Positions 20,474 through 37,949 of a DNA stretch of 64,000 nt are shown in pieces (positions within the stretch are counted from its first letter, which is position 1; each line of letters starts with the position of its first letter). The notes beneath the pieces were generated by a model, which had not been told where the DNA came from, did not search any database, and saw nothing but the letters and a program-made list of their open reading frames with translations. The translations under genes were made by a program, and so were the position numbers. Source of the stretch: an uncultured Alphaproteobacteria bacterium. GTDB lineage: Bacteria > Pseudomonadota > Alphaproteobacteria > Rs-D84 > CACZYB01. The DNA is taken from positions 3,419 through 67,418 of the forward strand of contig CALXYK010000004.1 in the NCBI GenBank assembly GCA_944392955.1. Reading direction: 5' to 3'.

Positions 20474-21286
20474 ATGACAAATAATGCAAAAGTAATAGTT
20501 GTTGGTAATGAAAAAGGTGGTAGTGGAAAATCTACACTTTCCATACATTTGGCAATTGCATACCTTTATTCCGGATATAAGGTCGCAACAATAGATTTAG
20601 ATGGAAGACAAGGCACACTCACCCATTACATAGAAAACAGGGTAAGATATGCAAATGAAAAGAACCTTGATTTGCCTATGCCTGAACATCTTGTTGTTAC
20701 ACCTTCACAATTTTCCAATAGACGAAGTTCTAATGAAGATGAGGAACAACTTGATGCCGAAATCAAGGATTTAAAAACAGAATACGATATAATAATAATT
20801 GATACACCCGGAACATATAGTCATCTTTCCAATGCGGGACATAAAAATGCGGATATTTTAATTACTCCGGTAAATGATAGTTTAGTTGACATTGATGTCA
20901 TTGCAAACATTGACCCTAATACAAAGGAAATAATATCAGAATCTCAGTATACTAATAACATAAGAAATATTCAAAAAATAAGAAAAGATATAGGAAAGGA
21001 TGATCTATTTTGGATTGTATTAAGAAACCGAATTTCACACATAGACGCAAAAAATAAACGAGAAGTTGACAACATTTTAAAAAAATTACAAACACAACTT
21101 GGTTTTACATATATTTCAGGAATAGGTGAAAGAGTTGTATACCGCGAAATGTTTTTAAAGGGACTAACTATACTTGATCTTTTAAAAACAGGAACAGACG
21201 AAATTACAATATCACACATCGCAGCTAAAAATGAACTTTTAACAGTTCTAAATACAATAAATATCCCTTTAAAACAAGATATATAA
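20474..21286 (+). CDS. mipZ: ParA-family ATPase MipZ (division-site positioning, FtsZ-polymerisation inhibitor)
   Basis: Motifs VIVVGNEKGGSGKST, LDLDGRQGT, IDTPG, TPVNDSLVDID, VLRNR and VVYREMF. These match the Caulobacter MipZ pattern as I recall it. Confidence 0.75.
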   Translation: MTNNAKVIVVGNEKGGSGKSTLSIHLAIAYLYSGYKVATIDLDGRQGTLTHYIENRVRYANEKNLDLPMPEHLVVTPSQFSNRRSSNEDEEQLDAEIKDLKTEYDIIIIDTPGTYSHLSNAGHKNADILITPVNDSLVDIDVIANIDPNTKEIISESQYTNNIRNIQKIRKDIGKDDLFWIVLRNRISHIDAKNKREVDNILKKLQTQLGFTYISGIGERVVYREMFLKGLTILDLLKTGTDEITISHIAAKNELLTVLNTINIPLKQDI

Positions 21287-21294: not shown

Positions 21295-21567
21295 TTATTT
21301 CCAACCTTTTAACAAATCGTTTATTATTTTTAACGGATCTACACCTATTGCCTTTGCAATATCAGCAAATTCAATAACATCTAATCTTCTTTCTCCGTTT
21401 TCATACTTTGAAACATAAGATTGATTTTTATGCAATTTATCTGCAACTTCTTTTTGTGTAAGTCCAGATTCCTTTCTTGCCAATAAAAGCAACTTTAAAA
21501 ATAAATTATAATTTTCTGTAAAAACTGATTTAGTCATCTTCTCCTCCATATATTTCATTTTAAGCAA
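21295..21567 (-). CDS. XRE/Cro-like helix-turn-helix transcriptional regulator
   Basis: Helix-turn-helix motif LTQKEVADKLHKNQSYVSKYENGER. 90-aa ORF; the real start may be an internal Met. Confidence 0.6.
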   Translation of the reverse strand: MLKMKYMEEKMTKSVFTENYNLFLKLLLLARKESGLTQKEVADKLHKNQSYVSKYENGERRLDVIEFADIAKAIGVDPLKIINDLLKGWK

Positions 21568-21685
21568 AGAATAACCCTTATTTGCATATATCCCAAAATC
21601 AAATAATAAATTTATTCTTTAATATAACTTAAATGAAAAATATATAAATATAAAGAAGTTGAAATTCTTTTTAATTAACAAAAAT

Positions 21686-21964
21686 TTAAAAAGCCCTGTC
21701 CACTCCCTTTTTTACCATATTTTGTATAAAAGAAACTAAATACCGCTGTCCCTCTAAAAACCTTAATTCTTCATTAGAAGCAGTCGCTGGCAAATACCTA
21801 TCCAAAGTAATAGAAATAAGATAGGCCAAAACCTTTTTCCCCTCATCTGAATTAAAAGTTTTTGCGAAATAAATAGGAATAATATCAGATTCCTTTTTTA
21901 AACTTTTACCCAAATTAAATAAATTAATAGTATCAAAAAATTTTTTATCCATAAAAACCTCCAT
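21686..21964 (-). CDS. hypothetical protein
   Basis: Start trimmed to an internal Met because the first 13 codons of the ORF coincide with the upstream terminator hairpin. Confidence 0.3.
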   Translation of the reverse strand: MEVFMDKKFFDTINLFNLGKSLKKESDIIPIYFAKTFNSDEGKKVLAYLISITLDRYLPATASNEELRFLEGQRYLVSFIQNMVKKGVDRAF

Positions 21965-21992
21965 AAAAAAAAAGGGCTTTAAAAGCCCTTTT
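21962..21992 (-). terminator. rho-independent terminator after the 22011-22679 gene
   Basis: On the minus strand: AAGGGC-loop-GCCCTT hairpin followed by a run of 9 T. Confidence 0.5.
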
Positions 21993-22010
21993 GATAACCA
22001 CAAATAAAAG

Positions 22011-22679
22011 TTAAATAAATATCTGTCCTGTTAATTTAACACTTTTAGGAAAAGCCCTAACACTGCTTTTACCACTTAAATAGATATGACCATCAACAAG
22101 GTTGTCCCCCATAAATGTCACACCATCAGCATTCACAAGATAAATATTACCAAGAACCTTAAAATTCTTAGGTATTTTTAAAAAATCTATATCTTTAATA
22201 TAAACATCGCCCAGGATACAAGTATTAGATTTAAGATAATCCAAATGCCCCTTTGAAAAAACAATATCACCTTTAACTAACAAAGTCTTAGGAGAGATAT
22301 TTTTATTTTTCAAAACAAAAGATTCTTGTGAAGTTAAAACCTGTCTTGAACAATTCTTGCCGGCACAAACTATACGATAATCATCTAAATATTTATCCCC
22401 TACATACTTTTTTAATCCCATAGTCATAGGAATATCTCTTTTAAACTCCTTACCTTCGTCATAAATATAATTCAATTTAGTAGGACGATTAAAAGGCACA
22501 AAAATATTTTCAGGTTTTTCCACCTTATTTGCAACAATATAGGCCTTTACCTTAAATTTTTCAGAATCAATAGCCGACCTGTTCAATGATTTAAGGAACA
22601 AAATACCCCCCACAATCATTAAAAACAATCCAGTAAAAACAAGCACATATCTTTTTTGTTCTGTATTCATAAGAGTCAC
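22011..22679 (-). CDS. hypothetical membrane-anchored protein with beta-rich repeat C-terminal region
   Basis: N-terminal TM helix (VLVFTGLFLMIVGGILFL). The C-terminal half contains short G-D/N-I/V-hydrophobic repeats (GDIVFSKG, GDVYIKD, GNIYLVN, GHIYLSG). Confidence 0.45.
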   Translation of the reverse strand: MTLMNTEQKRYVLVFTGLFLMIVGGILFLKSLNRSAIDSEKFKVKAYIVANKVEKPENIFVPFNRPTKLNYIYDEGKEFKRDIPMTMGLKKYVGDKYLDDYRIVCAGKNCSRQVLTSQESFVLKNKNISPKTLLVKGDIVFSKGHLDYLKSNTCILGDVYIKDIDFLKIPKNFKVLGNIYLVNADGVTFMGDNLVDGHIYLSGKSSVRAFPKSVKLTGQIFI

Positions 22680-22750: not shown

Positions 22751-23632
22751 TCATATTTTAAAATCAGTCTTAACACGAAAACTTCCCAATGGGTAATTCC
22801 TGATTGGAAATATATTTTTCTTAGACGTCAATGGCATTTTTATATGCTCGCTTAGTATGGCACCCGCCACACTATCCAAACCATCATCATAACCGTTCAC
22901 ATTATCAAAATTCCATTCCGAAAACTCAGAAATAAACGGAGTTTGCCTTACCTTTTCATTAACAAATAAATATCCTGCCGAGGTAATAACATCAAAAGCA
23001 TCTAAAATCCTTAGATTTTTTGAAACTTTTGAATGTTTAGGAATAATTGTTGTAAAAATATTCATCTTTAATAATTCAGACTTCAAAAATTCTGGTAAAA
23101 ATTTACCAATTCCATTACTTTCCACATAAACAACAGGAATATGATTCCTTTGTAAAAAAGCCCCAACCTTACAACATTGTTCATGAGCAGATTGAACCTC
23201 TTGCCCATCAGAATGATAAAGGTATTCTATATCATGCAGGTAAAATTTCCCTTCTGTATCAATAAAGACGACAGAAATTACACTTCTATCACCATCTTTT
23301 GAACCATACGCAGGATCCCACCAGCAAGATACTTTTTCTATTTTTTTGCCTGCTATTGAAAAATTCAACAAATGATTCCTTTCTTCCATTAACAAATCAT
23401 CTGAATAAAAGGAAAGTTTTGACACATCAAACCTTCCCTCTTTCATATCAACAGGAATAAGCATCATTTGCGAAGAAAACTTTTTCAACCCAACCGTTTT
23501 TTTTAATTTTTCTATTTTTTCAATAGGAAATTTTTCATTCCAAACTGGTTTTCCATTTTCCATAACAGGAATTTTCAAAACATCATATCCAAAAAGAAAT
23601 GCTTCCTGATTTTCATCATCATTCATCTGCAT
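22751..23632 (-). CDS. phage large terminase, C-terminal nuclease-domain fragment (T7 gp19-like)
   Basis: RNase-H-like nuclease motifs: CWWDPAYGSKDGDRSVISVV, VVYVESNGIGK, NGYDDGLDSVAGA. These match the T7 gp19 C-terminal half as I recall it. No ATPase domain. An in-frame TAA lies immediately before the ATG. Confidence 0.8.
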   Translation of the reverse strand: MQMNDDENQEAFLFGYDVLKIPVMENGKPVWNEKFPIEKIEKLKKTVGLKKFSSQMMLIPVDMKEGRFDVSKLSFYSDDLLMEERNHLLNFSIAGKKIEKVSCWWDPAYGSKDGDRSVISVVFIDTEGKFYLHDIEYLYHSDGQEVQSAHEQCCKVGAFLQRNHIPVVYVESNGIGKFLPEFLKSELLKMNIFTTIIPKHSKVSKNLRILDAFDVITSAGYLFVNEKVRQTPFISEFSEWNFDNVNGYDDGLDSVAGAILSEHIKMPLTSKKNIFPIRNYPLGSFRVKTDFKI

Positions 23633-25136
23633 TTACAATCAACCTTTCTGGAACAGCAAATGTTTTAGCCAACCACAAGGCAACTGCCTTTTTATCAACT
23701 ATTGCCAATGCTTCTTCTCCCAACTCTGATAAAGATTTTATCCAACCTAAAATATTTTCAGCATCTCTAACCGCCTGATTTCTAGCAAGAGGTGATTGAT
23801 ATTTCAAATCTACTTCATGGCCATTAACCATGATATCGGAAATTTCACCCCTACGTCTTAATATAGAAATTGCTCTTAAAATAACTGGTGTTAAAAATTC
23901 GGATTGTAATCTTCCATAGGTTGCTCCTAAAATTCTGCTCATTTGATTTGTTCTTTCTAAAACTTCTGTCGCAGTCATTTTAGTAGTAGAAAACGAAGAT
24001 AACTGATCTACCAATAAACTATGATTTATTTTTGCCCGTAAATCTGATAAAACTAATTGAGATACATCAAAATCCGCACCAGTCCTAAGTGGTGTAAGTC
24101 CACTAGATCCAACTGCCTTTGGAATTATAGTTCCCGGAGCAAGAGTAATATTAGAAATATTTAAAACCCCATCATCATCTGCTTGCCATACACCACTAAC
24201 TGCAATACTAGCATTTTTTAAAATCAACTCCACAACTTTATTCGCAGTTTTAATATCGGGCAATGCTTTCATCACTGGCGATCTTCCATATACTTCTGAT
24301 GGAATTTTCAACCACCTGAAACAAATAAACGGAGAATATGCAAAAACACCAGTTTTCAAAACAAACATTTCATTATTTGTTAAAAGTTTATCTGCATCAT
24401 TAACAAAAGCGACATAATTATAACCTTGTTGACCACTAGGTGTAATTCTTGGCAATACTGCTTCTATAACACAAATTTTTTCATCAGGTTTTTTAGAAAT
24501 AATATTCAGCTGTTTATCATCAAATTTAAAATTAGGAAATCTAAGTTTTAAATTTTCCAAAGTCAAAATTGATTTTCTAAAAACAGTATCTAATTTACCA
24601 TTAACATTTTCTTCTAATGCAATTTCATTCATAGGAATTGCTGTAAAATTAAATGCGGTTGTTTCACCAACGCTATTTTCCTCAAATAACATTACCGCTG
24701 TTCCAACAGTAATTAAATCTAAATAACATTGATGAGCCTCAACATAAAAATTAGACCTATCAAAATGAGATTGCAAAACTTTTTGAATATCATCTAATGC
24801 CTTAAATTTTTCTTGTTTATCCCCATTATCTTTATCACAAGCATCAACACCGAAACCCAAACCAAACCATTTTGACCAAGGCGGAGTAAGTTGAGCCAAT
24901 AAACTACCTGCTAATTGTTCCACACCAGATTCAGCAGTAGAATCAAAAATATCAACATTTTTCTTTTTACCATTGGAAATAGAAGTAAATAAACCACTTT
25001 TTTGAGGCAGTGCATAATCATAACATTCACTCCAATGATTTTCCCATTCGGCCCTTTTTTCCATGGCTTTCTGATATCTAGCATAGATTTTAAAAAGTTC
25101 TGTTTCATCAACAATATATTTATTATTTTCAATCAT
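23619..25136 (-). CDS. phage portal / head-to-tail connector protein (T7 gp8-like)
   Basis: 505 aa. The N-terminal pattern (YARYQKAMEKRAEWENHWSECYDYALPQ ... LAGSLLAQLTPPWSKWF) parallels T7 gp8 (YERLKNDRAPYETRAQNCAQYTIP ... LASKLMLALFPMQTWM) as I recall it. Confidence 0.75.
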   Translation of the reverse strand: MIENNKYIVDETELFKIYARYQKAMEKRAEWENHWSECYDYALPQKSGLFTSISNGKKKNVDIFDSTAESGVEQLAGSLLAQLTPPWSKWFGLGFGVDACDKDNGDKQEKFKALDDIQKVLQSHFDRSNFYVEAHQCYLDLITVGTAVMLFEENSVGETTAFNFTAIPMNEIALEENVNGKLDTVFRKSILTLENLKLRFPNFKFDDKQLNIISKKPDEKICVIEAVLPRITPSGQQGYNYVAFVNDADKLLTNNEMFVLKTGVFAYSPFICFRWLKIPSEVYGRSPVMKALPDIKTANKVVELILKNASIAVSGVWQADDDGVLNISNITLAPGTIIPKAVGSSGLTPLRTGADFDVSQLVLSDLRAKINHSLLVDQLSSFSTTKMTATEVLERTNQMSRILGATYGRLQSEFLTPVILRAISILRRRGEISDIMVNGHEVDLKYQSPLARNQAVRDAENILGWIKSLSELGEEALAIVDKKAVALWLAKTFAVPERLIVNADE

Positions 25137-25157
25137 ATTAAACCTCTTTTTTTATTG

Positions 25158-25190
25158 ATTAAAAAAACTCCTAAGATTAACTTAGGAGTC
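25158..25190 (-). terminator. rho-independent terminator downstream of ftsZ
   Basis: On the minus strand: GACTCCTAAG-TTAAT-CTTAGGAGT followed by TTTTTTT. Confidence 0.55.
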
Positions 25191-25212
25191 ATTTGAAAAT
25201 ATTTATTATTTA

Positions 25213-26928
25213 TTAGTTATTATTCTTTTTAAATATTGCTGGAATTTCCAAAGTTTCTTCCATTTTTTTTATCATTTCCATCAAATCAGTCTGTTGACTT
25301 TCTCTTTTCTGTTCATCCAAACTTCCAGCCAAAAATACCACATTATCATCTTCTTTTTTTTCTTCTTTCTTAGAAATTGTGAAATCCAATTCTTTATCCA
25401 AAGATAACTTTACATCTTTATCACTACCAAAATTTTCTACATCATCAAAGAAATTATCTTCCTTTGATTCACCTAATAAATCAAAGAATGATGACAAAGA
25501 ACTTTTCTTTTTACCATTTCCACCACCATTGTCCGGAGGAGTTGGTTCATCATCATCATTATCTTCTTTTTTTGCAACCAAATCCATAGGTTCAGATTCG
25601 GAAATTTTTTGTGCTTCTCTATTTATAAAATCATCAATACTAGAAGGTGTATTTTGTTTTATAAAACTATCAAAGGAGTTTTCCTTTTCAAAATTTTCCA
25701 CTTCCTCCGTATTTTCAGAAAACAAAGCATCTGCTCCAAAATCACCTAAAACATTTTTTACATCTTTATCAAAAGTATCATCTTTAATAGGTAATGGTTT
25801 TTCCTCATCTTGACTATTTATATCATTATCAAACGAAGAAAAAGATGAGGTTGTTTTTTCAATACTATTATATGTATTAACATTTTCCTTCATACTGGGA
25901 AAAGTATTTAACTCATCTCTATGAATATTTTTTATTCCTACATTTTCAGATAATCCAGTTGCAATTATCGCGACCTTTAATGAATCGTCCATAGATACAT
26001 CAAAACAAGTTCCAAGATAGAAATTTGTATCATCACTATCAATAGAAGCCCTAATAGTATTCATAACTTCGGCAGGTTCGTCCAAGGATAAATTTTCAGG
26101 ATTAGCCGTTATGTTCACAAGGACTGATTTTGCCCCCCTTATATCATTTCCTTGAAGCAAAGGATTTAACAAAACACCTTCTACTGCCTTTAATGCCCTA
26201 TTTTCGCCACGTTGAACCGAAGTTCCTATTAAAGTTCTACCACTTTTTTCCATTACCGCACGAATATCAGCAAAATCCAAATTTATTGTTCCAGGAATTC
26301 TTATCAAATCGGTAATATTTCTAACTCCGTCATAAAGGACATTATCAGAAATTTTAAACGCATTCAAAAAAGTCATCTGTTTATCAACAACATTATAAAG
26401 ATTCTGATTAGGCAAAACTATATAAGAGTCGACATTAGGAATTAAATTATCAATCGCATCTTTTGCAATTTTTTCCTTCTTTTTCCCCTCAAAATCAAAC
26501 GGCGTTGTTACAATAGCAACGGTTAAAATACCCTTTTCCTTTGCAATAGAGGCAATCACAGGCAATGCACCACTTCCTGTTCCCCCACCCATACCAGCAG
26601 TTAAAAATAAAATATTTGAATTTTTGATTAAATCAGCAATTTCACCACTTGATTCTTCTGCTGCCTTTTGACCTATTTCAGGTCTAGAACCGGCACCAAA
26701 ACCTTTCGTAGTTTGCTTTCCCAGTTGGATTTTTTTCGGCGACTTTGATTGTAATAATGATTGAGCATCAGTATTGGCAACAACAAACTCTACACCATCA
26801 ATTCCCTGCTCTATCATATTATTAACAGCATTACAACCAGCACCACCAACCCCCATTACCATAATTTTTGGAATAAAATTTTGAATCTCATCATCAAGAG
26901 ATTTATAACCAAAATTTCCATCAAGCAT
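25213..26928 (-). CDS. ftsZ: cell division GTPase FtsZ
   Basis: Tubulin signature GGGTGSGA, GVGGAGCNAVN, T7 loop NLDFADI. Long disordered acidic linker. Conserved C-terminal FtsA-binding peptide (LEIPAIFKK). Start set at the Met preceded by AAGGGGGA. Confidence 0.95.
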   Translation of the reverse strand: MLDGNFGYKSLDDEIQNFIPKIMVMGVGGAGCNAVNNMIEQGIDGVEFVVANTDAQSLLQSKSPKKIQLGKQTTKGFGAGSRPEIGQKAAEESSGEIADLIKNSNILFLTAGMGGGTGSGALPVIASIAKEKGILTVAIVTTPFDFEGKKKEKIAKDAIDNLIPNVDSYIVLPNQNLYNVVDKQMTFLNAFKISDNVLYDGVRNITDLIRIPGTINLDFADIRAVMEKSGRTLIGTSVQRGENRALKAVEGVLLNPLLQGNDIRGAKSVLVNITANPENLSLDEPAEVMNTIRASIDSDDTNFYLGTCFDVSMDDSLKVAIIATGLSENVGIKNIHRDELNTFPSMKENVNTYNSIEKTTSSFSSFDNDINSQDEEKPLPIKDDTFDKDVKNVLGDFGADALFSENTEEVENFEKENSFDSFIKQNTPSSIDDFINREAQKISESEPMDLVAKKEDNDDDEPTPPDNGGGNGKKKSSLSSFFDLLGESKEDNFFDDVENFGSDKDVKLSLDKELDFTISKKEEKKEDDNVVFLAGSLDEQKRESQQTDLMEMIKKMEETLEIPAIFKKNNN

Positions 26929-27033
26929 TTTTTCCCCCTTTTGACTTCTTTCCTTAATTATATCATAAAAAAAGGTAAAAGTTAAGAGATAAAAACATAA
27001 AAACAAATAATTTTATTTTTTTAAGCAAAAAAA

Positions 27034-27486
27034 CTAAGAACCAACAAAATTGTCCAATGCCTTTTTGCATGCCTCCGAAGCATCTATCAACTTATTTATA
27101 TTAGAAAGAGCACCAGCAGACACACCAAGAGACAATACATTCGCACCTGTTGCAATACCAGAAGAAACCAAAGAAATAGTTCTATTTTTTTCTAGATTTT
27201 TCATATCATCAATGTCTATTTCTCCAGAACTTTTTGCTACATTATTAGCAGATAATGCAGTTGAAGTAGCAGATCCAGCCGTCGCAACAGCCGAAGTAAC
27301 ACCAGTTGTAATAGATTGAGCCTTCAAACTATTCAAAACAGATCCATCAAATTTACATGCAGAAATCACATCTGAAATATATGGTTCTTTCTTTCTTACA
27401 CTATCCGAAGATAATTTTGCCTCTGCACCAAAGGATAAAAAAGAAGCCGACACAACAAAAACTAAACTATAAGATAAAAACTTCAT
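27034..27486 (-). CDS. secreted Ala/Ser/Thr/Gly-rich protein
   Basis: Start at the Met with a GGAGG ribosome-binding site. Signal peptide MKFLSYSLVFVVSASFLSFGAEA. Low-complexity A/S/T/G segments. The C-terminal motif is similar to the C-terminus of the upstream 612-aa protein. Confidence 0.5.
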   Translation of the reverse strand: MKFLSYSLVFVVSASFLSFGAEAKLSSDSVRKKEPYISDVISACKFDGSVLNSLKAQSITTGVTSAVATAGSATSTALSANNVAKSSGEIDIDDMKNLEKNRTISLVSSGIATGANVLSLGVSAGALSNINKLIDASEACKKALDNFVGS

Positions 27487-27487
27487 T

Positions 27488-29326
27488 TTAATCCTCCATT
27501 CCACTAACTTCTGCATTATATGATGAATAAGCATTATTTAAGGTTCTAATACTATCTTCACATTGTTTTAAATTTGTTATTGCATCTTCTATCGTAGCAA
27601 GGGATACAAAACTTACAACAGATGCAGTTCCACTAGCAAGAGACGAAGCCGCACTTAACCCAACCTGCCATTTATCAAAATCTTTTGCTGAAGCCAAAGC
27701 TTTACCACTAGCATCTCTTAACTCATGTATTTTTGTTTTATTACTCTCTACTATTGCTTGTTTACTTGAGATAGATTCTAATTCTGCATTTTTTTGAGCT
27801 AAAAGTTCATTTTTATTTATTTTTTCGCTCTCTTTTTCTTGTTTAACCTCATTTTCAATTTGTCCTGGTTCAGATTTTTCAAGTTGGTCATTAACATCTT
27901 TTAATTTAATATTTAAATCCTCAATAACCTTGTCTATATTATCCATTTGGGACTTATAGTCATTACATTTATCAACATTTTCCTTTGCATCGTTTATTTT
28001 ATTATTTAACTCTTTTATTGTTTTTTCCTTCTCTTCCTTCTGGGATTTTAATTTGGAAATGGCACTCATTTTAGCTTCCTCTAATGCAGAATCTGTTTCA
28101 TTATTATCAGCATCCAATTCTCCCAAATCTTTCATAAGGACATCTATTGAATCATTAAGCCCCAATACCGCCTTTTTTGCATTTGCCAAACTTTCTTCAT
28201 TTGTTTTGTTGTCTGAAAGTTTATTTTCACAGGCTAAATTATTATAACTATTCTTAATAGTCGTTTGTTCTTTTTTTTGTTTTGCAATAACTTGCTCTAA
28301 AGCATCTTTTTCTGCTGTTAATTTAGTTTTTCTATCTTCTATTGTTCCATATTTAATAGTAGAAACTCCATTCAAATCTGTATTTTTTGATAAAATAATT
28401 TGTCCCTCTTCCAAATTTGATATATCACTATCAATAGACTCTATTTCTGTATTTAACTTAGCTACTTCTCTTTCTAACTTTTCTTTCTCCCCATCCAAAC
28501 CTTGACCTATACTTGTATTTTTAGTTCCAAGGCTCTTCTCTGCATCGTGATAATAAATTGCATCTTTTGTATTTTTAAGTGATAATGCACCAACAACTGT
28601 GCTACCTGTACTTAACACACTACCAACACCAGATGTCAAGGAAACCCCATAAGTTATTTGGGATTTAAGTTTTTCCATATCATTCACAAATGCACCACAT
28701 TTTTCTCGTGCAGTTTGAACTGCTGAATTTATTTTTTTCTCATATTCTGAAACATCAACAAAAATCTCGCTTTCCAAATACATAGAGGCGATTAAATTTC
28801 CCGCCCTTGTTACATAAAGTTTTCTTCTATCCGAAGATAATCCAGAGTTATCAACAACCGAACTAATCTGTGAATTTGTTCCATTTAACAAAGAAACCGA
28901 ATAACTATATTTAGGAAGCAAATCTACACATTTTATCTCCCCTTCCGCAGATACAACATCCATCGCCCCCGAAGAATCCATTCCAACCAATTTCATATAA
29001 GGACCGAAACAAAACTTTTCATCCAATTTAGCCGTTCCATTAGTATAATAATAATTATATACTGATGGTAATAACATAGTACTTAAACTATACGATTCAT
29101 CATAATATAATTTATCCAAATGCACCGAGTTTAAAAACCTTAACACAGATCCAGAAATATCCGAAGAATTAGAAGAGGAACTTGACGAAGTCGTACGTCC
29201 CGAAGATCTGCTATTTGGACTTCTACTGCCACCTGAATTAACTACACGAGCAGCGAACAATCCTCCATCTGAAAACAAATAAGATAAAAAGACCAATCCA
29301 CAAAGTAAATTAAACTTCTTTTTCAT
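27488..29326 (-). CDS. large secreted coiled-coil protein
   Basis: Signal peptide. Ser-rich low-complexity stretch. About 300 aa of Lys/Glu-rich heptad-like coiled coil. C-terminal A/S/T-rich domain. Confidence 0.55.
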   Translation of the reverse strand: MKKKFNLLCGLVFLSYLFSDGGLFAARVVNSGGSRSPNSRSSGRTTSSSSSSNSSDISGSVLRFLNSVHLDKLYYDESYSLSTMLLPSVYNYYYTNGTAKLDEKFCFGPYMKLVGMDSSGAMDVVSAEGEIKCVDLLPKYSYSVSLLNGTNSQISSVVDNSGLSSDRRKLYVTRAGNLIASMYLESEIFVDVSEYEKKINSAVQTAREKCGAFVNDMEKLKSQITYGVSLTSGVGSVLSTGSTVVGALSLKNTKDAIYYHDAEKSLGTKNTSIGQGLDGEKEKLEREVAKLNTEIESIDSDISNLEEGQIILSKNTDLNGVSTIKYGTIEDRKTKLTAEKDALEQVIAKQKKEQTTIKNSYNNLACENKLSDNKTNEESLANAKKAVLGLNDSIDVLMKDLGELDADNNETDSALEEAKMSAISKLKSQKEEKEKTIKELNNKINDAKENVDKCNDYKSQMDNIDKVIEDLNIKLKDVNDQLEKSEPGQIENEVKQEKESEKINKNELLAQKNAELESISSKQAIVESNKTKIHELRDASGKALASAKDFDKWQVGLSAASSLASGTASVVSFVSLATIEDAITNLKQCEDSIRTLNNAYSSYNAEVSGMED

Positions 29327-29454
29327 AACTAATTCTCCTACCTCTATGCTCTGTATGATAGCATATTTTTAGGCTTATATCAACAGATTATTACAATTAT
29401 TTACTTTTTTTGTTGCGTTTTGCTAAAATATCAGTTATAAATTACCTGTCCTTG

Positions 29455-29531
29455 TGGCAAGGTAGCTCAGTCGGTAGAGCAAAGGACTGAAAATCCTTGT
29501 GTCGGCGGTTCGATTCCGCCCCTCGCCACCA
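29455..29531 (+). tRNA. tRNA-Phe (anticodon GAA); the 3' acceptor strand looks irregular
   Basis: Manual cloverleaf. D-arm GCTCAGTCGGTAGAGC. Anticodon stem AAGGA/TCCTT with loop CTGAAAA. T-arm GGCGG-TTCGATT-CCGCC. By my count the acceptor has an A4-C69 mismatch and one extra C between the T-stem and the 3' acceptor strand. Confidence 0.8.
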
Positions 29532-29538
29532 AAAAATC

Positions 29539-29570
29539 AACTCCTTACTTCAAATGTAAGGAGTTTTTTC
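29539..29570 (+). terminator. rho-independent terminator after tRNA-Phe
   Basis: Hairpin CTCCTTAC-TTCAAAT-GTAAGGAG followed by TTTTTT. Confidence 0.5.
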
Positions 29571-29584
29571 ATAAATACATTTTA

Positions 29585-29765
29585 AACATCTGGTTCGTAT
29601 ACTCGTATAACACGCTAAGCCAAAAAAAATCCCCTGTTGCGAGGAGAGAACACGAACGAAGTTGTTCTTAATGACGAGCGGTGTTAGCGAGGAATTTTAG
29701 AACATCTGGTTCGTATACTCGTATCACCCGCTAAGCCAAAAAAATCCCCTGTTGCGAGGAGAGAA
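29585..29765. repeat. two ~66-bp direct repeats (29585-29650 and 29701-29765), the second ending in a stem-loop
   Basis: The units read AACATCTGGTTCGTATACTCGTAT(A/C)AC(A/C)CGCTAAGCCAAAAAAA(A)TCCCCTGTTGCGAGGAGAGAA and differ at 3 positions. In the second unit CCCCTGTTGCG pairs with CGCAACAGGG at 29788-29797 around a GA-rich loop. Confidence 0.6.
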
Positions 29766-30134
29766 GGAGGAAAGGAGAGAAAAGGAACGCAACAGGGAAT
29801 AACTTTGAAAATAAATTTAAAAATATACTTAAATTCACTTCACATTCTCGATTCTTAATATACTCGACAAAAAAAGTCAAGCGATTCTTTTTTTGGCTAT
29901 TTTTTAAAGTGATTTAAAAAGCAAAAAAAACACTAAAATCAAATAGTTAAAAAAATGATTTTTTTTAATAAGAATCAATATTGTCTATAAAAATCTACTA
30001 TCTAAAAGAAGCAAAAACACGATTCTTTTAACACAAAAAAAGAATCGACTCCGAATCTTTTAAAACACAGTAAAGTTTTAGCAATTTAATTACCAAATAG
30101 CAAATAAAAAAACACATTTTTACAAAAAAAATAT

Positions 30135-30232
30135 CCCTTAAGTCGAGGAGAGAGAGAAAATAAGGAGGGAATGACTTAAGGGATCTTCGGTTTTCACCGA
30201 ATTTGCCGAAATGAGGGGTCGTCTCGGCAAAC
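30135..30232. other. cluster of three consecutive hairpins in non-coding DNA (candidate structured RNA or recombination site)
   Basis: CCCTTAAGTC-(28-nt GA-rich loop AGGAGAGAGAGAAAATAAGGAGGGAAT)-GACTTAAGGG; TTCGG-TTTTCA-CCGAA; TTTGCCGA-AATGAGGGGTCG-TCTCGGCAAA. Confidence 0.4.
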
Positions 30233-30351
30233 TTTATATTCGTATTAACGAATTGCCTTCATTATACAAATCATTTATACTTTGTCAAGATATTTTTGCA
30301 AAAATATTTTTTCTGTATAAAACAATATAAAAATTCCCATAAAAACAACAA

Positions 30352-30951
30352 CTAAACTTTATATATTGTATCAATAGTATGTGGCGTCCCTATAAAAATT
30401 TGCATACCATCTGGAACTAAAATAAAATTGTATTCCAGTAATCTCTCCCTTAAATCAAGCCTTTTTTGATATGTATCACAATTTTTGGGAACCTCTACAT
30501 CATCAAAAATTATAACATCCGCCCTACTTCCCGTCGCATTAGACAATAAGCCAACTGCTAACATAGAGGGATCCCTTAACTCCTTACTTCTCACAACGGT
30601 AAAACTACCAGACGCCCAATCTGATTTTTTCTTTGGCCTAATATCTTCCATTAAAGGATTAACCTCTATAATACGTTTTACATTTTTAACCATTTTTCTC
30701 GCTAACATAGTATCAGCAGCCACCACCAAAATTCTTGTATTAGGATTTTTATACAAAAGCCAAGCACAAAATATTCCAACAATAGTTGACTTCCCACTAC
30801 TTCGAAAAGCCATCAACAAGCCCCTTTTTTTATCTGATAAATAGATACTTTCAAGCCATTTTGCAATTTTAATATGATGTTCTGGCGTATCTATTTCTTG
30901 TAATTTATTCCAAGCCAACAAAAACTTTTCAAAATTTAACTTTCTTTTCAT
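30352..30951 (-). CDS. phage large terminase, N-terminal ATPase-domain fragment (T7 gp19-like)
   Basis: Walker A LMAFRSSGKST. Walker B ADVIIFDDVE. Coupling motif IFIGTPHT. Nearly colinear with the T7 gp19 N-terminal region as I recall it (LQAFRGIGKSF...RADIIIADDVEIP...YLGTPQTE). The ORF stops right after the ATPase domain. Confidence 0.85.
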   Translation of the reverse strand: MKRKLNFEKFLLAWNKLQEIDTPEHHIKIAKWLESIYLSDKKRGLLMAFRSSGKSTIVGIFCAWLLYKNPNTRILVVAADTMLARKMVKNVKRIIEVNPLMEDIRPKKKSDWASGSFTVVRSKELRDPSMLAVGLLSNATGSRADVIIFDDVEVPKNCDTYQKRLDLRERLLEYNFILVPDGMQIFIGTPHTIDTIYKV

Positions 30952-30952
30952 T

Positions 30953-31393
30953 TTATAAAATATTCAAACTATAAAAAGCAGAATCCAACAATTTCAAAGC
31001 ATCTTTGTCTTTTGAAAGTAAATTTTTGTTTTTTTTGTAATTATAATTCAATTCATTTGTTTTTAAATCTAAATCTGAAAAATAATCATTATTTTTAATA
31101 TCTTCATCTACTTCTTTTTCTATATTACCAAGCAAAACAGCCGAAGAACCATCTGTAAAATCTAAACCATTTGCAGCCATAGTAGCCTTTTTCGTAGCAA
31201 GTTTAGATTTTAATAAATCTGTTTTTTCCTGCTCATATACTTGTTGTTTCTTTTTAATTTCAGCATCTGCTAATGCTTTCTCCTGTTTGGCCATTTCTGT
31301 CGCTGCCTTTTTAGCATCATTAGATTCTTTTATATCCATAACAGTTTTTGCAACATTTGCAACACCAGCGACAACACCTGTACTTACACCCAT
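30953..31393 (-). CDS. hypothetical coiled-coil protein (possible small terminase or internal virion protein)
   Basis: 146 aa. Lys/Glu/Ala coiled-coil segment. Its stop codon is 1 nt from the terminase ATG. Function not assignable. Confidence 0.35.
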   Translation of the reverse strand: MGVSTGVVAGVANVAKTVMDIKESNDAKKAATEMAKQEKALADAEIKKKQQVYEQEKTDLLKSKLATKKATMAANGLDFTDGSSAVLLGNIEKEVDEDIKNNDYFSDLDLKTNELNYNYKKNKNLLSKDKDALKLLDSAFYSLNIL

Positions 31394-31403
31394 AATTAAC
31401 CTC

Positions 31404-33311
31404 CTACTTTATTATATCTATTAACATTGAAAAACTTAGAATTTTTAATTTATAAGGTTTTGAACTTTGTATTTTAAACAAAGGAATTTCATAATTTTTT
31501 ACAAATCCTTTACCTCGTATTCTTAAATCCCCCGTATAATAAGGCAAACTTTCATCAAAACAATTTCCACTATCAAAATTCAAAAAGACAATAGTCCTAA
31601 GCCCAGAACCTGTATCAATTTGAACTAATGGAGTATCCATAACCCTTAATGTCAATTCCAACAATCTAACAGACTTTGGAATATAACTCCAACTTATAAA
31701 TGTAGGTAATGGACAATATATATGAGTAAAAGGCAAACCAATTATAATATTTTTAGAAGTCTTAGGTAATATTATTTTATTATCTACCACTTCTAAATCA
31801 TATATATAATCATCTGCATTAACTACAACCTTTTTACCATTTAAAAATGAAAGATTTTCTACCATATCAATACCTGTTTCTGATGTAATTTTTTTAGAAC
31901 AATCACAAGAAACATCTTCATCAAAAACTTCTAAGAAATAATTACTTCCTCGTTGAACTACAACATAAACTTTATCAACCAAAACAGACAAGGAAAGTAT
32001 TTTACCATCTGTTTCATATCTTACCCAAGCATTTATATTATATGTTTTATTTGTTAACAATACAGCCAAAGTTCCATCTTCTTGAACAACATATAACATT
32101 CTTTTTTTGACATTATAATCCTGCTCAATCGGACTATTTAATAAGTGATTAGATAACAAAATTAAATCTTGCGAAGAATAATTTTCACTTAAATCACCAT
32201 AAAAAAACTCTCTTATCTCTTTTTTGTTTCTAGCCACAAAAATAGTAGAACCTTCTACTAATTTAGGGGCTATATATCTATCAGAAATAGACCCTATCTT
32301 AGTTTGTTGAGAAACTATTATATTAGACGGAGTAAGAGGACTTCCCGTAATCATCCATTCAGAGTCCGAAGTAAACACCTGTAAATGCCTACCTGAAAAT
32401 ACTGATAATATTTCATTAACCTTATCAGAAAATATATCAAACTCTATTGATTCATCATCAAGTCCGGTTCCCAAATCAAAATTCATAAAATCACCAGTCT
32501 TAGAAAACCACAACCTATTGCTTAAACTTTTTGAACCACCAATTACCAATCTATTTTGGTGAAACGCAATACTTTTAGGATAACCACGGCGTTGTGAAAA
32601 ACTCTGTTCTTGCCAATTTGCATCAGCATTAACATCGGATAAATTTGATTTTACCTCTGCATTTGCAATAGTTTCAGATTCAATAGAAGTAATAAGAACT
32701 TCTCCACCATCTAATGTAATCCTAATATTAACCCAATTATCAGAGAACAAATTTTTACTTGCTGTAATTTGAATATTACCTGTTTTTGCAGACGGAGTAA
32801 GAGTTATACCTTCTGTATCATCAAATCTATTAAATGGTTGACAAGAATAACCATAAGTTGCATTTGTAGCATATATCCAAGACGAAATTGACCAAGTTTC
32901 ATTTAACAAATCGTATTTTAATATTTGAGGTTCAATATCTGGATGAGCCAGATATAACTCACTACCTTTCTGCGACCATCTTAAATTTTTTAAATCAGCA
33001 ATCGCATACGGCGAAGTCAAAGAAGACACTTTTTCTTCATTTTCATCATAAATATCAATCGTATTATTTCCAAAAAACAAAATAAAAAGTTTTTCACTGG
33101 AATATTCAAAAGAAATTATTTTACCTTCTGTTGACAAAGTATCAACATATCTCAGACCTTCCCTTCTTTCTATTCCACCCGTAGCAATCACATTCATATT
33201 TGTAATTGTCATAGCCCCACTTTTGTAAGCGGTTGAATTTCCCCTACCAAATAAATTTCTTGATAATTCTCCAAACGAAAAGTTAGACATAGTAATAGTT
33301 TGCTTTACCAT
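31404..33311 (-). CDS. tail tubular protein B-like (T7 gp12-like)
   Basis: 635 aa. Positioned after a gp11-like gene. The mid-region pattern (ILSVFSGRHLQVFTSDSEWMITGSPLT...IFVARNK) parallels T7 gp12 (LFSEELLIWSDEAQFVLTASGTLT...VYFASPR) as I recall it. Confidence 0.6.
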   Translation of the reverse strand: MVKQTITMSNFSFGELSRNLFGRGNSTAYKSGAMTITNMNVIATGGIERREGLRYVDTLSTEGKIISFEYSSEKLFILFFGNNTIDIYDENEEKVSSLTSPYAIADLKNLRWSQKGSELYLAHPDIEPQILKYDLLNETWSISSWIYATNATYGYSCQPFNRFDDTEGITLTPSAKTGNIQITASKNLFSDNWVNIRITLDGGEVLITSIESETIANAEVKSNLSDVNADANWQEQSFSQRRGYPKSIAFHQNRLVIGGSKSLSNRLWFSKTGDFMNFDLGTGLDDESIEFDIFSDKVNEILSVFSGRHLQVFTSDSEWMITGSPLTPSNIIVSQQTKIGSISDRYIAPKLVEGSTIFVARNKKEIREFFYGDLSENYSSQDLILLSNHLLNSPIEQDYNVKKRMLYVVQEDGTLAVLLTNKTYNINAWVRYETDGKILSLSVLVDKVYVVVQRGSNYFLEVFDEDVSCDCSKKITSETGIDMVENLSFLNGKKVVVNADDYIYDLEVVDNKIILPKTSKNIIIGLPFTHIYCPLPTFISWSYIPKSVRLLELTLRVMDTPLVQIDTGSGLRTIVFLNFDSGNCFDESLPYYTGDLRIRGKGFVKNYEIPLFKIQSSKPYKLKILSFSMLIDIIK

Positions 33312-33318
33312 ATTTCAC

Positions 33319-33873
33319 CTACTTTCTTATATCCACAAGTGGGAAATTTACAAAAGATTTATTAGTTTCTTGCATACTATCAATAGATTTTGCCTCTCTT
33401 ATTTCCGAATTAAATAATTTATAAAATAAAGAATATTTACTAGTATCATTTAACAAAGAAATAGAAAGTTCAGCCGCCATCAGATAAACAAATGCAGAAA
33501 TAAACACAGGTGTAAAATATTCTTCGTTCACATTTGCAATATAATCCAAATACACCTCTTCATCATTACAATAAAGATAATTTCCTAAAATTTTATAAGG
33601 CGAATTAGAAGAAATTTTTAATGCTCGCAAAAAATCACCTGGCAAAGCATAAGAATAGCCATACTCACTTTTACTATCTTCAACAACTCTATTTAATTTC
33701 TGAGAAGCAGTCGCAAAACTCCACGAAAATATAGAAAGCAATTTATATTTTAGCGTAGAATATAAACTTCCACATATTTCAGCTTCCGGAGTTCCCTCAT
33801 CAAAAGACACAATTGCATTAGCCCCAATTTTGTTAAGGGCTTTGGAACATAAATCAATACTTGAAAAACTCAT
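33319..33873 (-). CDS. tail tubular protein A-like (T7 gp11-like)
   Basis: 184 aa. The N-terminal pattern ALNKIGANAIVSFDEGTPEAEICGSLY parallels T7 gp11 [30 protein letters not shown] as I recall it. Located between the capsid gene and gp12-like, as in T7. Confidence 0.55.
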   Translation of the reverse strand: MSFSSIDLCSKALNKIGANAIVSFDEGTPEAEICGSLYSTLKYKLLSIFSWSFATASQKLNRVVEDSKSEYGYSYALPGDFLRALKISSNSPYKILGNYLYCNDEEVYLDYIANVNEEYFTPVFISAFVYLMAAELSISLLNDTSKYSLFYKLFNSEIREAKSIDSMQETNKSFVNFPLVDIRK

Positions 33874-33931: not shown

Positions 33932-34189
33932 TTAAGATGCTGGTGAAATAATATCAGAAACCACTACTACACCAGAAGTAATAGAACTTACAACAAATAT
34001 ACTTGTTGTCAAAGTTCCATCTATATCCATAGAACTAACAATCAAATCGCCAACATTAAAAATATTAGCAACAGAATTAAAATAATTTTGACCAGTAACA
34101 ACAGTTTTCTCATCATCTGTTTTATAATGCCACAAAGTAAAACCATTTGAATAAGCTAACACAGATAAATTTTTAGAATTCATACTCAT
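33932..34189 (-). CDS. hypothetical small protein
   Basis: 85-aa ORF between the capsid and gp11-like genes. No motifs. Confidence 0.3.
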   Translation of the reverse strand: MSMNSKNLSVLAYSNGFTLWHYKTDDEKTVVTGQNYFNSVANIFNVGDLIVSSMDIDGTLTTSIFVVSSITSGVVVVSDIISPAS

Positions 34190-34217
34190 TTTTATATTTC
34201 CTCCTATTTAGTTTTAA

Positions 34218-35048
34218 TTAAGCAATAGTTGCATCATCATCACAAAGTATTTTAACAATACCAGTATCGTCTATAAGTTTCGCTCCTTGGCTCATACAAT
34301 TAGAAATAAAATGAGCTGCCCTTTCACCATGCCAGGTAATATCAGTTTTCACATCACAACCAGACGCATGTCCAACAGCATTTTTATGATAAATAAAACA
34401 ACTTCTTACACCTTCATTGCAAGGAAGAGCATTATGCAAAATCCAATTTATACCCATCCATTTTCTAGATTCTGTTCCTTTAAGTAATGGATAATTATCA
34501 CCAACATAATCGGCATTTGAAAATTCCTCTAAACTTAAAAGTTCATTCCATTGATGAACACCAACAACACCAAATCTTTGACCATCATCAGGCACATCAT
34601 TATTGTTAAGTATTTCCAAAGCTTGAAATATCTTTGATTTAGTAAAACCTACACCAGAAGTATCAACAGAATTAGTTGCATTGTTAAGTTCATTAATAAT
34701 AAGTTCATCACTCTTTCTACCTAAGGCATAAGCGCCAGCAGAAGCAACAACTCTTCTTTCATCTACATTTGTTTTTAATTCATCAAGTTCATCAACCCAA
34801 TCTCCTGCATAGAAATCAGACAACACACATTCAACAGGAGTATGATCTAAATTCATAACAGGAACAAGTCCGTGTCTAGCTTTTGTACTTGCAAGACCTT
34901 TACCTATTTTTTGAAAGGTAGTTGAGGTTCCTCTTACATCACTTTTTGTTCTAACAGTAGAACGTAATTTTGTTCCCATCTGTTGAAATGCAAGATGAAC
35001 TTCTGCCTCAAATTGTTTTATAAATACTTTATCAATAGAAACTGACAT
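34218..35048 (-). CDS. phage major capsid protein (T7 gp10-like, short form)
   Basis: 276 aa. The N-terminal segment (VFIKQFEAEVHLAFQQMGTKLRSTVRTKS...TFQKIG) and C-terminal segment (HKNAVGHASG) parallel T7 gp10A as I recall it. Follows the scaffold gene as in T7. Confidence 0.7.
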   Translation of the reverse strand: MSVSIDKVFIKQFEAEVHLAFQQMGTKLRSTVRTKSDVRGTSTTFQKIGKGLASTKARHGLVPVMNLDHTPVECVLSDFYAGDWVDELDELKTNVDERRVVASAGAYALGRKSDELIINELNNATNSVDTSGVGFTKSKIFQALEILNNNDVPDDGQRFGVVGVHQWNELLSLEEFSNADYVGDNYPLLKGTESRKWMGINWILHNALPCNEGVRSCFIYHKNAVGHASGCDVKTDITWHGERAAHFISNCMSQGAKLIDDTGIVKILCDDDATIA

Positions 35049-35155
35049 AATTTATATCTCCTTATTTTTTATTAAACTAACGATAGGTTAAAACCTACCA
35101 ATTAAAAAAATCCGCCATATAAATGACGGATTAAAAGTATAATTAAACCCAAATT

Positions 35156-35722
35156 TTATTTATTATCTTTCTTCACAAGAACCGGTTCTATACTACTTAA
35201 TAAGCCATGCATAGAAGTCAATGTAAATAATACAGACACAAAAGATAATATAAATATCTCAATAGAAGATCTTATCAATTGCGGTGAATATCTAGTCAAC
35301 AATAAAACATCGACATAAAATATAACCGAAAAGATAAACGATAATAAAAAAGCAATTAAAGATTGCACCTTAAAAGTGTTCTTAAATATATATTCCACTT
35401 TTAATTTTCTAGATTTAATCATAATAAATTTTAAAATCAAACACACAAATACGAACGGAACATAAAATTTTATAATAGAGAAAATAGCATCAACAACAGC
35501 AATAAAGAAAATCTCTATTGGATTCATTGAAAATCTCAATGTTTCATAAACATCCAATTCTTTCATAAAAGAAAAGGCAAAAAACACAATAACAGAAAAA
35601 ACTAATGTAAATTTTAATATTCCTTTTGTATGATTATAAAAAAATCCCAACAAAGAACCTAAAAAAGAAGATTTTTTACTTTCAACTTTCTTAGTCTTAT
35701 CGTTGGGATTTGATACCAACAA
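35156..35722 (-). CDS. hypothetical 4-TM membrane protein
   Basis: Four hydrophobic helices. No motifs. Inserted between the scaffold and capsid genes. Confidence 0.4.
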   Translation of the reverse strand: MLVSNPNDKTKKVESKKSSFLGSLLGFFYNHTKGILKFTLVFSVIVFFAFSFMKELDVYETLRFSMNPIEIFFIAVVDAIFSIIKFYVPFVFVCLILKFIMIKSRKLKVEYIFKNTFKVQSLIAFLLSFIFSVIFYVDVLLLTRYSPQLIRSSIEIFILSFVSVLFTLTSMHGLLSSIEPVLVKKDNK

Positions 35723-35730
35723 AGAAACTT

Positions 35731-35997
35731 CTATTTCTTCGCTACTTTTTTTTTTGCTACTGGTTTAACTGGCTTTTTAACAGAAGCAACTTTAACAGCA
35801 GCTTTTTTTACAACAATTTTTTTCTTAGGAGCTGCTTTAACAACTACTTTTTTTGCAGGTGCTTTTTTAGCAACTACTTTTTTTGCAGGAGCCTTTGTAG
35901 CAACTACTTTTTTAGCTGGAGTTTTTTTTGCAACTGGTTTAGAAGCTACTTTTTTAGCAGCAGGTTTTGCAGTTTTTTTAATTATACTTTTAAACAT
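35731..35997 (-). CDS. histone H1-like Lys/Ala-rich DNA-binding protein
   Basis: Start set at Met15 with an AAGGAGAG ribosome-binding site. 88 aa of PAKK/VAKK repeats (KPAAKKVASKPVAKKTPAKKVVATKAPAKKVVAKKAPAKK...). Confidence 0.6.
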   Translation of the reverse strand: MFKSIIKKTAKPAAKKVASKPVAKKTPAKKVVATKAPAKKVVAKKAPAKKVVVKAAPKKKIVVKKAAVKVASVKKPVKPVAKKKVAKK

Positions 35998-36097
35998 ATT
36001 CCTCTCCTTATTAAACAAAAGACAACTACAATATACCATATAAAAAAAAAGACTGCAACATCAAAAATAAAAAAAAGTAAAAAAAATTTAAAAATTT

Positions 36098-36685
36098 TTA
36101 TTCATCACCATATAAAAATTTAAATCCATCATCAACTTTTTTAATGAAATCTTTATCTCCATCTCTCCAATACTTTGGATCCTTCATCATTTCTTTTAAT
36201 TTTTTCTCTGTAATACCACATTGAGATTCACCAGATTTTGCCATAACTTTCGGCTCATTGGATGTCATCATATTATACAAAGCAAGCACACCATAAAACG
36301 AAGAATTCAAAGAATTATAAATTTCCTGAGGAACATTTTTTTCTGCCCACAAAGAAATTTGACGAGAAATTTCATCAAATCTTTCTTCTCCACCAAAATA
36401 ATTTTCAAGTTTTGAAAGTTCTCTGTAAGCACGAAATTCCTCTATTACTTCTTGAATCTTTGGAATCATAATTTCAGCAGCAAGGTCATAAACCAATTGG
36501 ACCTGAGCATTTGTGAAACCTGCTTCTTTTAAACGTTTATTGACATTTTGATCAACTTGTAAAAATTTATTATGAAGCACTATTTGATAGTCTTTATCAG
36601 CACCATCAGTTTTCAAAGCCAAATCTAAAACATCTGTGTTTTCACGATCAGTATTTTTATTTTGATCAACTTTTTGATTATACAT
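36098..36685 (-). CDS. phage scaffolding protein (T7 gp9-like)
   Basis: The C-terminus (ERFDEISRQISLW...KLKEMMKDPKYWRDGDKDFIKKVDDGF) parallels the T7 gp9 C-terminus (ERFDALYNHLETH...EMIKAMSDPRYRTDANYRRQVEQKVIDSNF) as I recall it. Located upstream of the capsid gene. Confidence 0.6.
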   Translation of the reverse strand: MYNQKVDQNKNTDRENTDVLDLALKTDGADKDYQIVLHNKFLQVDQNVNKRLKEAGFTNAQVQLVYDLAAEIMIPKIQEVIEEFRAYRELSKLENYFGGEERFDEISRQISLWAEKNVPQEIYNSLNSSFYGVLALYNMMTSNEPKVMAKSGESQCGITEKKLKEMMKDPKYWRDGDKDFIKKVDDGFKFLYGDE

Positions 36686-37792: not shown

Positions 37793-37949
37793 AACTATTT
37801 AAAAATGAAAAAACCCTCTCTGAATAAAAAGGGCATAAAAAAACTAATGCAGATACAATTATCCCATTAGTTGAAAAACACTATACCACATTTTTACAAA
37901 AATGTCAAGAACATTTTAAGAACAAAATTAACTTTTATTTAGAAATCAG

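Follow-up and report, generated by a model that had tools for sequence, protein, structure and literature searches.

In a 64,000-nucleotide stretch of DNA from an uncultured Alphaproteobacteria bacterium (contig CALXYK010000004.1, positions 3,419 to 67,418; hereafter the window), the large terminase (TerL) of a T7-like gene set is encoded by two open reading frames (ORFs), TerL-N and TerL-C, that enclose the cell division gene ftsZ. These ORFs are probably the two chains of a terminase that was split once, within a chromosomally fixed, vertically inherited and domesticated gene set that resembles a gene transfer agent (GTA) built from T7-like parts, and not a prophage. In all descriptions of viral packaging motors, a single polypeptide carries both ATPase and nuclease, joined by a flexible lid/linker (PMC7617512). 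Judged from their sequences, the two intact halves look like a naturally split motor enzyme, not a broken gene. Arguably, the domesticated T7-like particle gene set, which is apparently undescribed, is a weightier result than the split itself.

Two ORFs carry complementary parts of one terminase

Both ORFs lie on the minus strand. TerL-N (30352..30951, 199 amino acids (aa)) encodes a T7-type TerL ATPase core, with a Walker A motif AFRSSGKST, a Walker B motif ADVIIFDDVEVP and a C-motif IGTPHT, as is typical of additional-strand catalytic-E (ASCE) ATPases, and stops 8 aa past the GTPHT. It matches the structures of T7/T3-type gp19 (4bij, 8dgc) across residues ~20-211 (E = 1e-24 to 2e-25), with ~38% identity across the N half. 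TerL-C (22751..23632, 293 aa) comprises ~70 aa of ATPase lid/linker and an RNase H-like nuclease domain, whose acidic triad is formed by D106, E171 and D249/D250/D253; the second ATG, at 23626, is probably its conserved start. The Pfam model Terminase-T7_RNaseH-like scores 19.4 bits on TerL-C, under its 27-bit cutoff, and a phmmer search of PDB sequences with TerL-C alone gave no match; a profile of full-length relatives was used in its place, and the nuclease fold was confirmed in an AlphaFold2 (AF2) model of the fused window halves. Against the TerL profile PHROG 38, TerL-N aligns to positions 270-458 (E = 1.6e-45) and TerL-C to positions 468-713 (E = 3.3e-38), and the two ORFs are therefore complementary, non-overlapping parts of one TerL. 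ATPase and nuclease do not share a polypeptide here: each ORF has its own start and stop, the two are 6.7 kb apart, and the same two-ORF state occurs in 11 genomes.

These matches confirm the original prediction that two ORFs bearing these ATPase and nuclease motifs account for one gp19-like protein, though not its proposal that 30-40 linker residues are missing. Together, TerL-N and TerL-C amount to 199 + 293 = 492 aa, compared with 470-510 aa in unsplit relatives of the same lineage, and when aligned to full-length TerLs of that lineage they span the whole protein with no residues missing. T7 gp19, at 586 aa, is ~90 aa longer than the ~495 aa typical of the window's TerL lineage.

The break had also been placed at the ATPase/nuclease junction, and here the data point elsewhere, to a site ~8 aa past the C-motif and ~95 aa ahead of the first nuclease Asp. 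TerL-N ends in ...GTPHTIDTIYKV, and TerL-C starts inside the short variable segment next in line. AF2 models of an unsplit relative (predicted local distance difference test (pLDDT) 90) and of the fused window halves (pLDDT 88.6) both place the break in an unstructured loop, which spans residues 188-215 of the fused model and has a dip in confidence at 201-210. The modeled loop runs from the C-motif strand to a β-hairpin, after which come two helices and, ~70 residues on, the nuclease sheet; ATPase-only domains from the PDB cover ~250-280 model columns, and nuclease-only domains ~190-225. Because the break falls in a surface loop right after the C-motif, the ~70-aa lid/linker belongs to the nuclease ORF, such that TerL-N corresponds to the nucleotide-binding core and TerL-C to the lid/linker plus nuclease. 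The break thus lies inside the ATPase domain, between core and lid, and not at the ATPase/nuclease domain boundary.

As a separate observation on TerL-N, the Walker B motif of the window reads IIFDDVE, with a Phe at residue 149 that is shared by the relative L051; this residue is Cys (II/VICDDVE) in the other nine aligned split genomes and in >90% of the aligned unsplit relatives.

The split is conserved within a single clade

Both halves are present as separate ORFs, broken at the same residue, in 11 distinct genomes, and 5 more loci carry a stand-alone C half only. Searches with TerL-C retrieved a stand-alone ~290-aa family down to 43% identity, beyond which the remoter relatives are full length. 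The same break residue and gene order recur in independent metagenome-assembled genomes (MAGs) from the rumen, human and other animal guts and the termite gut, and 4 separate metagenome assemblies of one species contain an identical TerL-C protein with the same genes around it. Neighbor-joining analysis of 72 TerLs grouped all 11 split sequences into a single clade (bootstrap 97/100). Across related genomes, terL is contiguous in the unsplit clusters, and both the split and the position of ftsZ between the halves are conserved.

The Walker A, Walker B and C-motifs are invariant across the 11 split genomes, as are the nuclease D/E/D residues. Pairwise ratios of non-synonymous to synonymous substitution rates (dN/dS) are ~0.13 for TerL-N, ~0.19 for TerL-C, 0.16 for the portal and 0.15 for the capsid, all within the range of ftsZ, although these figures are rough because dS is near saturation (0.8-1.9). 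Among conspecific contigs, the portal shows 6-8 synonymous vs 1-3 non-synonymous substitutions; the equivalent strain-level counts for TerL-C are meaningless because the contigs were picked by exact protein identity, which leaves only the portal counts unbiased. Pairwise identities of TerL-N, TerL-C and portal follow those of FtsZ (r = 0.94-0.96, Mantel p = 0.001), the two halves co-diverge tightly with one another (r = 0.96), and wherever both regions can be seen in a split genome, both halves are still there. These comparisons show that the split is ancient, arose once and has been kept under purifying selection, which favors one of the two explanations originally offered, a functionally split terminase.

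Among the unsplit relatives, the terL of L065 carries an in-frame stop in its nuclease part (~10730), so that this copy is either a pseudogene or affected by a sequencing error.

The gene set resembles a domesticated, T7-like gene transfer agent

The other explanation, a rearranged resident phage, fares poorly in view of the genomic surroundings. The 64-kb window holds structural and packaging genes without genes for replication, integration or self-propagation, and none of the modules that a functional prophage would carry in one block (integrase, attachment sites, replication and lysis) was found between positions 20 and 57 kb of the window. On one side the element is flanked by ligA, obg, rmuC, def, fmt, truA and mipZ, and on the other by genes for a flavodoxin-fold protein, a MacAB-TolC-type efflux system and kdtA; the def-fmt-truA and mipZ neighbors recur in relatives. 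Within the window, the element occupies three loci over ~35 kb, interleaved with efflux, lipopolysaccharide (LPS) and channel genes.

Relatives of this TerL were detected at 352 loci in GTDB species genomes, including gut or termite lineages. The unsplit relatives, from Rhodospirillales, Magnetospirillum, Micavibrio, Defluviicoccus and some gut MAGs, reside in compact clusters amid housekeeping genes, in the order (repressor, two small ORFs), portal, Bbp19, scaffold, capsid, p85, tubular A, tubular B, internal virion proteins, TerL and p98, and in some clusters p98 is followed by an endolysin (Hydrolase_2) and a GTA-type holin (GTA_holin_3TM). The 121 flanking ORFs inspected in 13 unsplit genomes encode diverse housekeeping functions with no recurring integrase, and the only phage-type families that recur among them are GTA_holin_3TM and Hydrolase_2. 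Vertical inheritance under purifying selection is indicated by dN/dS, by co-divergence with FtsZ (the linked ftsZ serving as host proxy) and by the syntenic flanks. Taken together, compactness, the lack of replication and integration genes, a multi-locus layout, purifying selection and host co-divergence match the genomic signature of a GTA, here with T7-like parts.

With T7/T3-type phages (gp19 structures PDB 4BIJ and 8DGC; Autographiviridae) the element shares the ATPase core motifs, the RNase H-like nuclease and a T7-type portal, scaffold and tubular A/B proteins; unlike theirs, the window TerL is encoded by two ORFs, belongs to a shorter lineage and lies in a chromosome, where its surroundings lack replication and transcription genes of the T7 kind. 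With RcGTA-type GTAs of Alphaproteobacteria it shares a structural and packaging set devoid of replication and integration genes, dispersed loci, vertical inheritance and purifying selection, and unsplit relatives of the set also possess the GTA_holin_3TM holin and a cell-wall hydrolase. The GTAs known so far from Alphaproteobacteria are siphovirus-like. RcGTA is HK97-like, whereas the parts in the window are those of a podovirus; no protein homology was seen between the two except for the holin family, and the window TerL is split.

Another parallel is FpGTA of Faecalibacterium prausnitzii, described as the first podovirus-like GTA-like element (PMC12946183; 2026). It too is a GTA-like element of a gut bacterium, with a presumed podovirus-like morphology and more than one locus, but it belongs to another host phylum and has packaging data. 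Since that report calls FpGTA the first of its kind, the alphaproteobacterial T7-like set appears to be undescribed, and in the literature on Alphaproteobacteria we found no specific description of a conserved T7-like cluster or of a split TerL. Sulfitobacter phage GT1 (PMC10386132) was considered as a prior description and rejected, as that work deals with P22- and LUZ24-like modules and not with this set.

A proposed two-chain motor and its alternatives

If the two ORFs are chains of one motor, TerL-N and TerL-C would reassemble non-covalently via the interface between ATPase core and lid into a working packaging ATPase/nuclease, and the gene set would make small podovirus-like particles. 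The C-terminal part of the T3/T7 terminase contacts the portal, and the C-terminal chain of a two-chain terminase would be expected to do the same. Several points weigh against this account. Separated domains of T4 gp17 reportedly did not reconstitute DNA packaging in trans in vitro. The set in the window includes no recognizable tail fibers, large ejection proteins (gp15/gp16-like), small terminase or endolysin/holin, and particles may therefore be incomplete, or the absent gene types may be encoded elsewhere. Since 64 kb of the source genome is visible, a second intact terL or a second ftsZ could lie outside it. Vertical inheritance was gauged by one linked host gene, ftsZ, and the near-saturated dS blunts the estimates of constraint.

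A fairly unlikely explanation is that the halves have both been retained without acting together as a terminase, having been put to separate host uses after domestication, or with just one of them in use. Each half indeed has its own start, stop and genomic neighborhood, the order is reversed in L051, where TerL-C lies upstream of TerL-N, and family searches of the window recovered neither fibers, nor ejection proteins, nor a recognizable small terminase. Against separate uses, neither fragment constitutes a complete enzyme domain set, because the break cuts the ATPase core from its lid. Moreover, the halves co-diverge as tightly as noted above, neither has been lost where both regions are visible, and both persist under a constraint similar to that on the portal, scaffold, capsid and tubular proteins kept with them.

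We consider it improbable that the element is an active temperate phage or satellite in whose genome ftsZ and a split terL are present by chance. Genes of repressor-like and XRE type are found with the set, and IMG/VR lists relatives as viral contigs; these relatives are all unsplit, share ≤44% identity and lie on short contigs of 10-25 kb. Such a phage is nonetheless difficult to reconcile with housekeeping flanks (def-fmt-truA, mipZ) conserved between genomes, with three loci scattered over ~35 kb among efflux, LPS and channel genes, with co-divergence with FtsZ, and with the lack of a recurring integrase beside 13 relatives. Very improbable, in turn, is a decaying prophage in which a recent illegitimate rearrangement broke terL and left its pieces as drifting pseudogenes: the scattered genes and the lack of integrase and replication genes would fit, but intact ORFs in 11-16 genomes down to 43% identity, invariant catalytic motifs, dN/dS of 0.1-0.2 and a single, ancient origin of the split contradict it.

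There is still less to suggest that a split intein, or trans-splicing of a fragmented intron, restores a single polypeptide or mRNA from the halves. In other phages, introns or inteins often interrupt terL at conserved motifs; terL genes with introns, inteins or homing endonucleases occur, for example, in Bastillevirinae (PMC11878797) and Twort-like phages (PMC5618024). The window terL resembles these in having its break near a conserved motif, and the interruption in the relative L006 is a short non-coding insert in situ. Interrupted phage terL genes are, however, spliced to one polypeptide, whereas the window halves have their own start and stop, show no intron or intein signals and are separated by essential host genes. 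TerL-N and TerL-C add up to full length with no extra intein-sized sequence, the overlap of the TerL-C ATG with the portal stop leaves no room for the 3' part of an intron, and neither the region downstream of TerL-N nor the gap in L006 matched a group I or group II intron. Finally, a mis-assembly joining unrelated contigs at the two break points, a caveat of the original prediction that suits a window probably derived from a MAG, can practically be dismissed, as the same junctions occur in >10 MAGs of different studies and in the 4 independent same-species assemblies.

ftsZ and portal lie between the halves, probably through a swap of adjacent blocks

As predicted, the 6.7 kb between the halves contains the portal gene, ftsZ, two ORFs with secretion-type signals, tRNA-Phe and ~820 bp of non-coding DNA, assignments supported by Pfam, TIGR00065 and a tRNA call. 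The T7-type portal or head-to-tail connector (23619..25136, minus strand) matches Pfam PF12236 Head-tail_con (E = 1e-124) and PHROG 332. It is preceded by ftsZ (25213..27006, minus strand), an equivalog of NCBIfam TIGR00065 (356 bits vs cutoff 295) with a C-terminal LEIPAIF peptide, whose translation probably begins at the ATG at 26928, for a length of 571 aa, as in conspecific contigs. Further upstream are two ORFs of 612 aa and 166 aa with signal-peptide-like N-termini (27034..29326, minus strand), present in the window-type subclade only, without a match in Pfam, PHROG or NCBIfam, and outside the ancestral phage set. The 166-aa ORF (27034-27534) most likely starts at an internal MKFLSYS..., which removes its apparent 47-nt overlap with the 612-aa ORF. 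The tRNA-Phe gene (GAA anticodon) lies at 29456..29531 on the plus strand.

The enclosure of ftsZ by two halves of a phage gene is thus real and conserved, but it is less remarkable in itself than it had seemed. In L006, the earliest-branching split genome, TerL-N and TerL-C are still adjacent, with ~550 bp of non-coding DNA between them, and an ftsZ-portal-Bbp19-mipZ block lies farther downstream. Exchanging the blocks [TerL-C..p222] and [ftsZ-portal] of L006 yields exactly the order of the window, and a single swap of adjacent blocks therefore accounts for the position of ftsZ, with no special "capture" of this gene. Termite-gut MAGs show a minimal form, TerL-N-ftsZ-portal-TerL-C, and L051 differs in its order, portal-TerL-C ... 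TerL-N. These arrangements suggest a path in which a ~550-bp segment with a small RNA (sRNA) gene would first have interrupted terL in situ, a state kept in L006. The blocks [TerL-C..p222] and [ftsZ-portal] would then have changed places, leaving ftsZ and portal between the halves, as in the termite-gut MAGs; tRNA-Phe and the two signal-peptide proteins would have been gained last, in the window's subclade. Short direct repeats had been suggested as recombination scars, and none was found: the two junction regions reached a local-alignment score of 7, vs 8.1 +/- 1.5 in shuffles, as expected because the split event is old.

The gene borders around the portal offer a possible view of expression. 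The portal stop and the TerL-C ATG overlap by 14 nt in the window, as had been read from the sequence; in relatives the second ATG gives an 8-nt ATGA-type overlap, or there is a gap of 9-15 nt with a Shine-Dalgarno sequence. One or other form of this junction holds in most split genomes, and TerL-C is translationally coupled to the portal. An intrinsic terminator of ftsZ (25166..25190, minus strand) is located ~30 nt upstream of the portal ATG, and a hairpin with a U-run 20-30 nt upstream of that ATG is found in all split genomes with ftsZ upstream (ftsZ-portal spacers, L001-L020). The stems vary in sequence among genomes, with no space for a promoter downstream of the terminator. This arrangement suggests that expression of portal and TerL-C relies on read-through from ftsZ; both would be made at a low level from ftsZ transcripts that pass the terminator, and TerL-N would be made together with the tail genes.

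The mipZ gene (20474..21286, plus strand), encoding a spatial regulator of FtsZ, is convergent with the portal/TerL-C block and adjoins its distal end. ftsZ and mipZ thus face each other with solely element genes between them, both in the window (20474-27006: portal, TerL-C, p222, Bbp19 and an HTH (helix-turn-helix) protein) and in L006 (16336-20903: portal and Bbp19). In all these genomes ftsZ lacks an adjoining ftsA or ftsQ.

A conserved sRNA gene adjoins the break

In the window, the ~820 bp of non-coding DNA, which includes tRNA-Phe on the opposite strand, lies between TerL-N and the signal-peptide ORFs. Directly downstream of TerL-N is a conserved sRNA gene of ~135 nt (30118..30288, minus strand) with a perfect sigma-70 promoter (TTGACA-16-TATAAT), three hairpins and covarying stems. 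The loop of its terminator hairpin is CU-rich, ~28 nt long and invariant, and it includes CCUCCUUA, which is the same as the anti-Shine-Dalgarno sequence of 16S rRNA. Counterparts were located in L001 (~3130-3280), L003 (~1363-1512), L006 (9480-9635) and L051 (12120-12312, minus strand). The sRNA always adjoins the terL break, except in the termite-gut MAGs; it is located between the halves in L051, and its conserved terminator hairpin lies inside the 550-bp gap between the halves of L006. Its presence at the break in L006 and L051 implies that the segment that first interrupted terL may have carried the sRNA.

Two near-identical, paralogous sRNA-like units (29623..29800, minus strand), each with a CU-rich-loop hairpin followed by a U-run, lie between the first sRNA and tRNA-Phe, with 54-nt direct repeats of 89% identity, and the distal part of the non-coding block is inverted in L003, L009 and L010. 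Rfam searches of the whole window at gathering scores returned three tRNAs only, and the sRNA matches no Rfam family; at a permissive E-value, the 1.1-kb non-coding block and the L006 gap yielded only tRNA-Phe and noise.

Implications

Tentatively, these findings can be combined into one reading: an apparently undescribed, widespread family of podovirus-derived GTA-like elements in Alphaproteobacteria (352 TerL loci), one clade of which has a long-lived two-chain motor (ATPase core plus lid-nuclease). In that clade, the portal and nuclease genes would be tied to transcription of ftsZ, and the site of the original break would be marked by an sRNA gene with an anti-Shine-Dalgarno-like sequence. 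As a whole this combination is possible but less probable than the split terminase in a domesticated set that forms its core. If true, a motor cut between ATPase core and lid and maintained by selection would offer a natural experiment on the role of the lid in linking ATP hydrolysis with the movement and cleavage of DNA. A T7-like set conserved across gut Alphaproteobacteria and lineages of the Rhodospirillales type would extend the range over which domesticated phage particles are known. The locus also illustrates that essential host genes (ftsZ, tRNA-Phe) can sit inside a "phage gene" without recent damage being implied.

Remaining genes of the element

The other genes of the element are distributed on both sides of the halves. 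Upstream of TerL-N, all on the minus strand, are genes for an internal virion protein (30953-31393), tail tubular B or nozzle (31404-33311) and tail tubular A (33319-33873), a block (30953..33873) matching PHROG 418, 376 and 394. They are preceded by p85 (33932-34189), the major capsid protein (34218-35048), which is followed by a strong terminator (35109-35132), and a T7-type scaffold (36098-36685); p188 and a Lys-rich p102 lie between capsid and scaffold, within 33932..36685. A further minus-strand group (37050..38456) contains p148 and p98, which come after TerL in unsplit clusters, and a 168-aa winged-helix (Trans_reg_C) protein (37950-38456), with a promoter-like site at 37908-37880. At the distal end of the portal/TerL-C block, p222 (within 21295..22679), a Bbp19-like protein (21686-22003) and an XRE-type HTH protein (21295-21567) are likewise encoded on the minus strand. 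p222, p148 and p188 gave no match in Pfam, PHROG or NCBIfam.

A detached third piece (55479..56624), comprising two 126-aa ORFs on the minus strand and a divergent 79-aa HTH ORF on the plus strand, lies ~17 kb past the main block amid channel and LPS genes. These ORFs match no family in Pfam, PHROG or NCBIfam, but they are homologous to the module of S24 repressor, 117-aa and 129-aa proteins found directly upstream of the portal in unsplit clusters (L089, L007), the repressor here being without its S24 peptidase part. Near the element there are also a TrbC/VirB2-type pilin ORF (15273-15926, minus strand) and a gene for a TraT-like lipoprotein (38538-39164, plus strand), a hint at conjugation-related genes.

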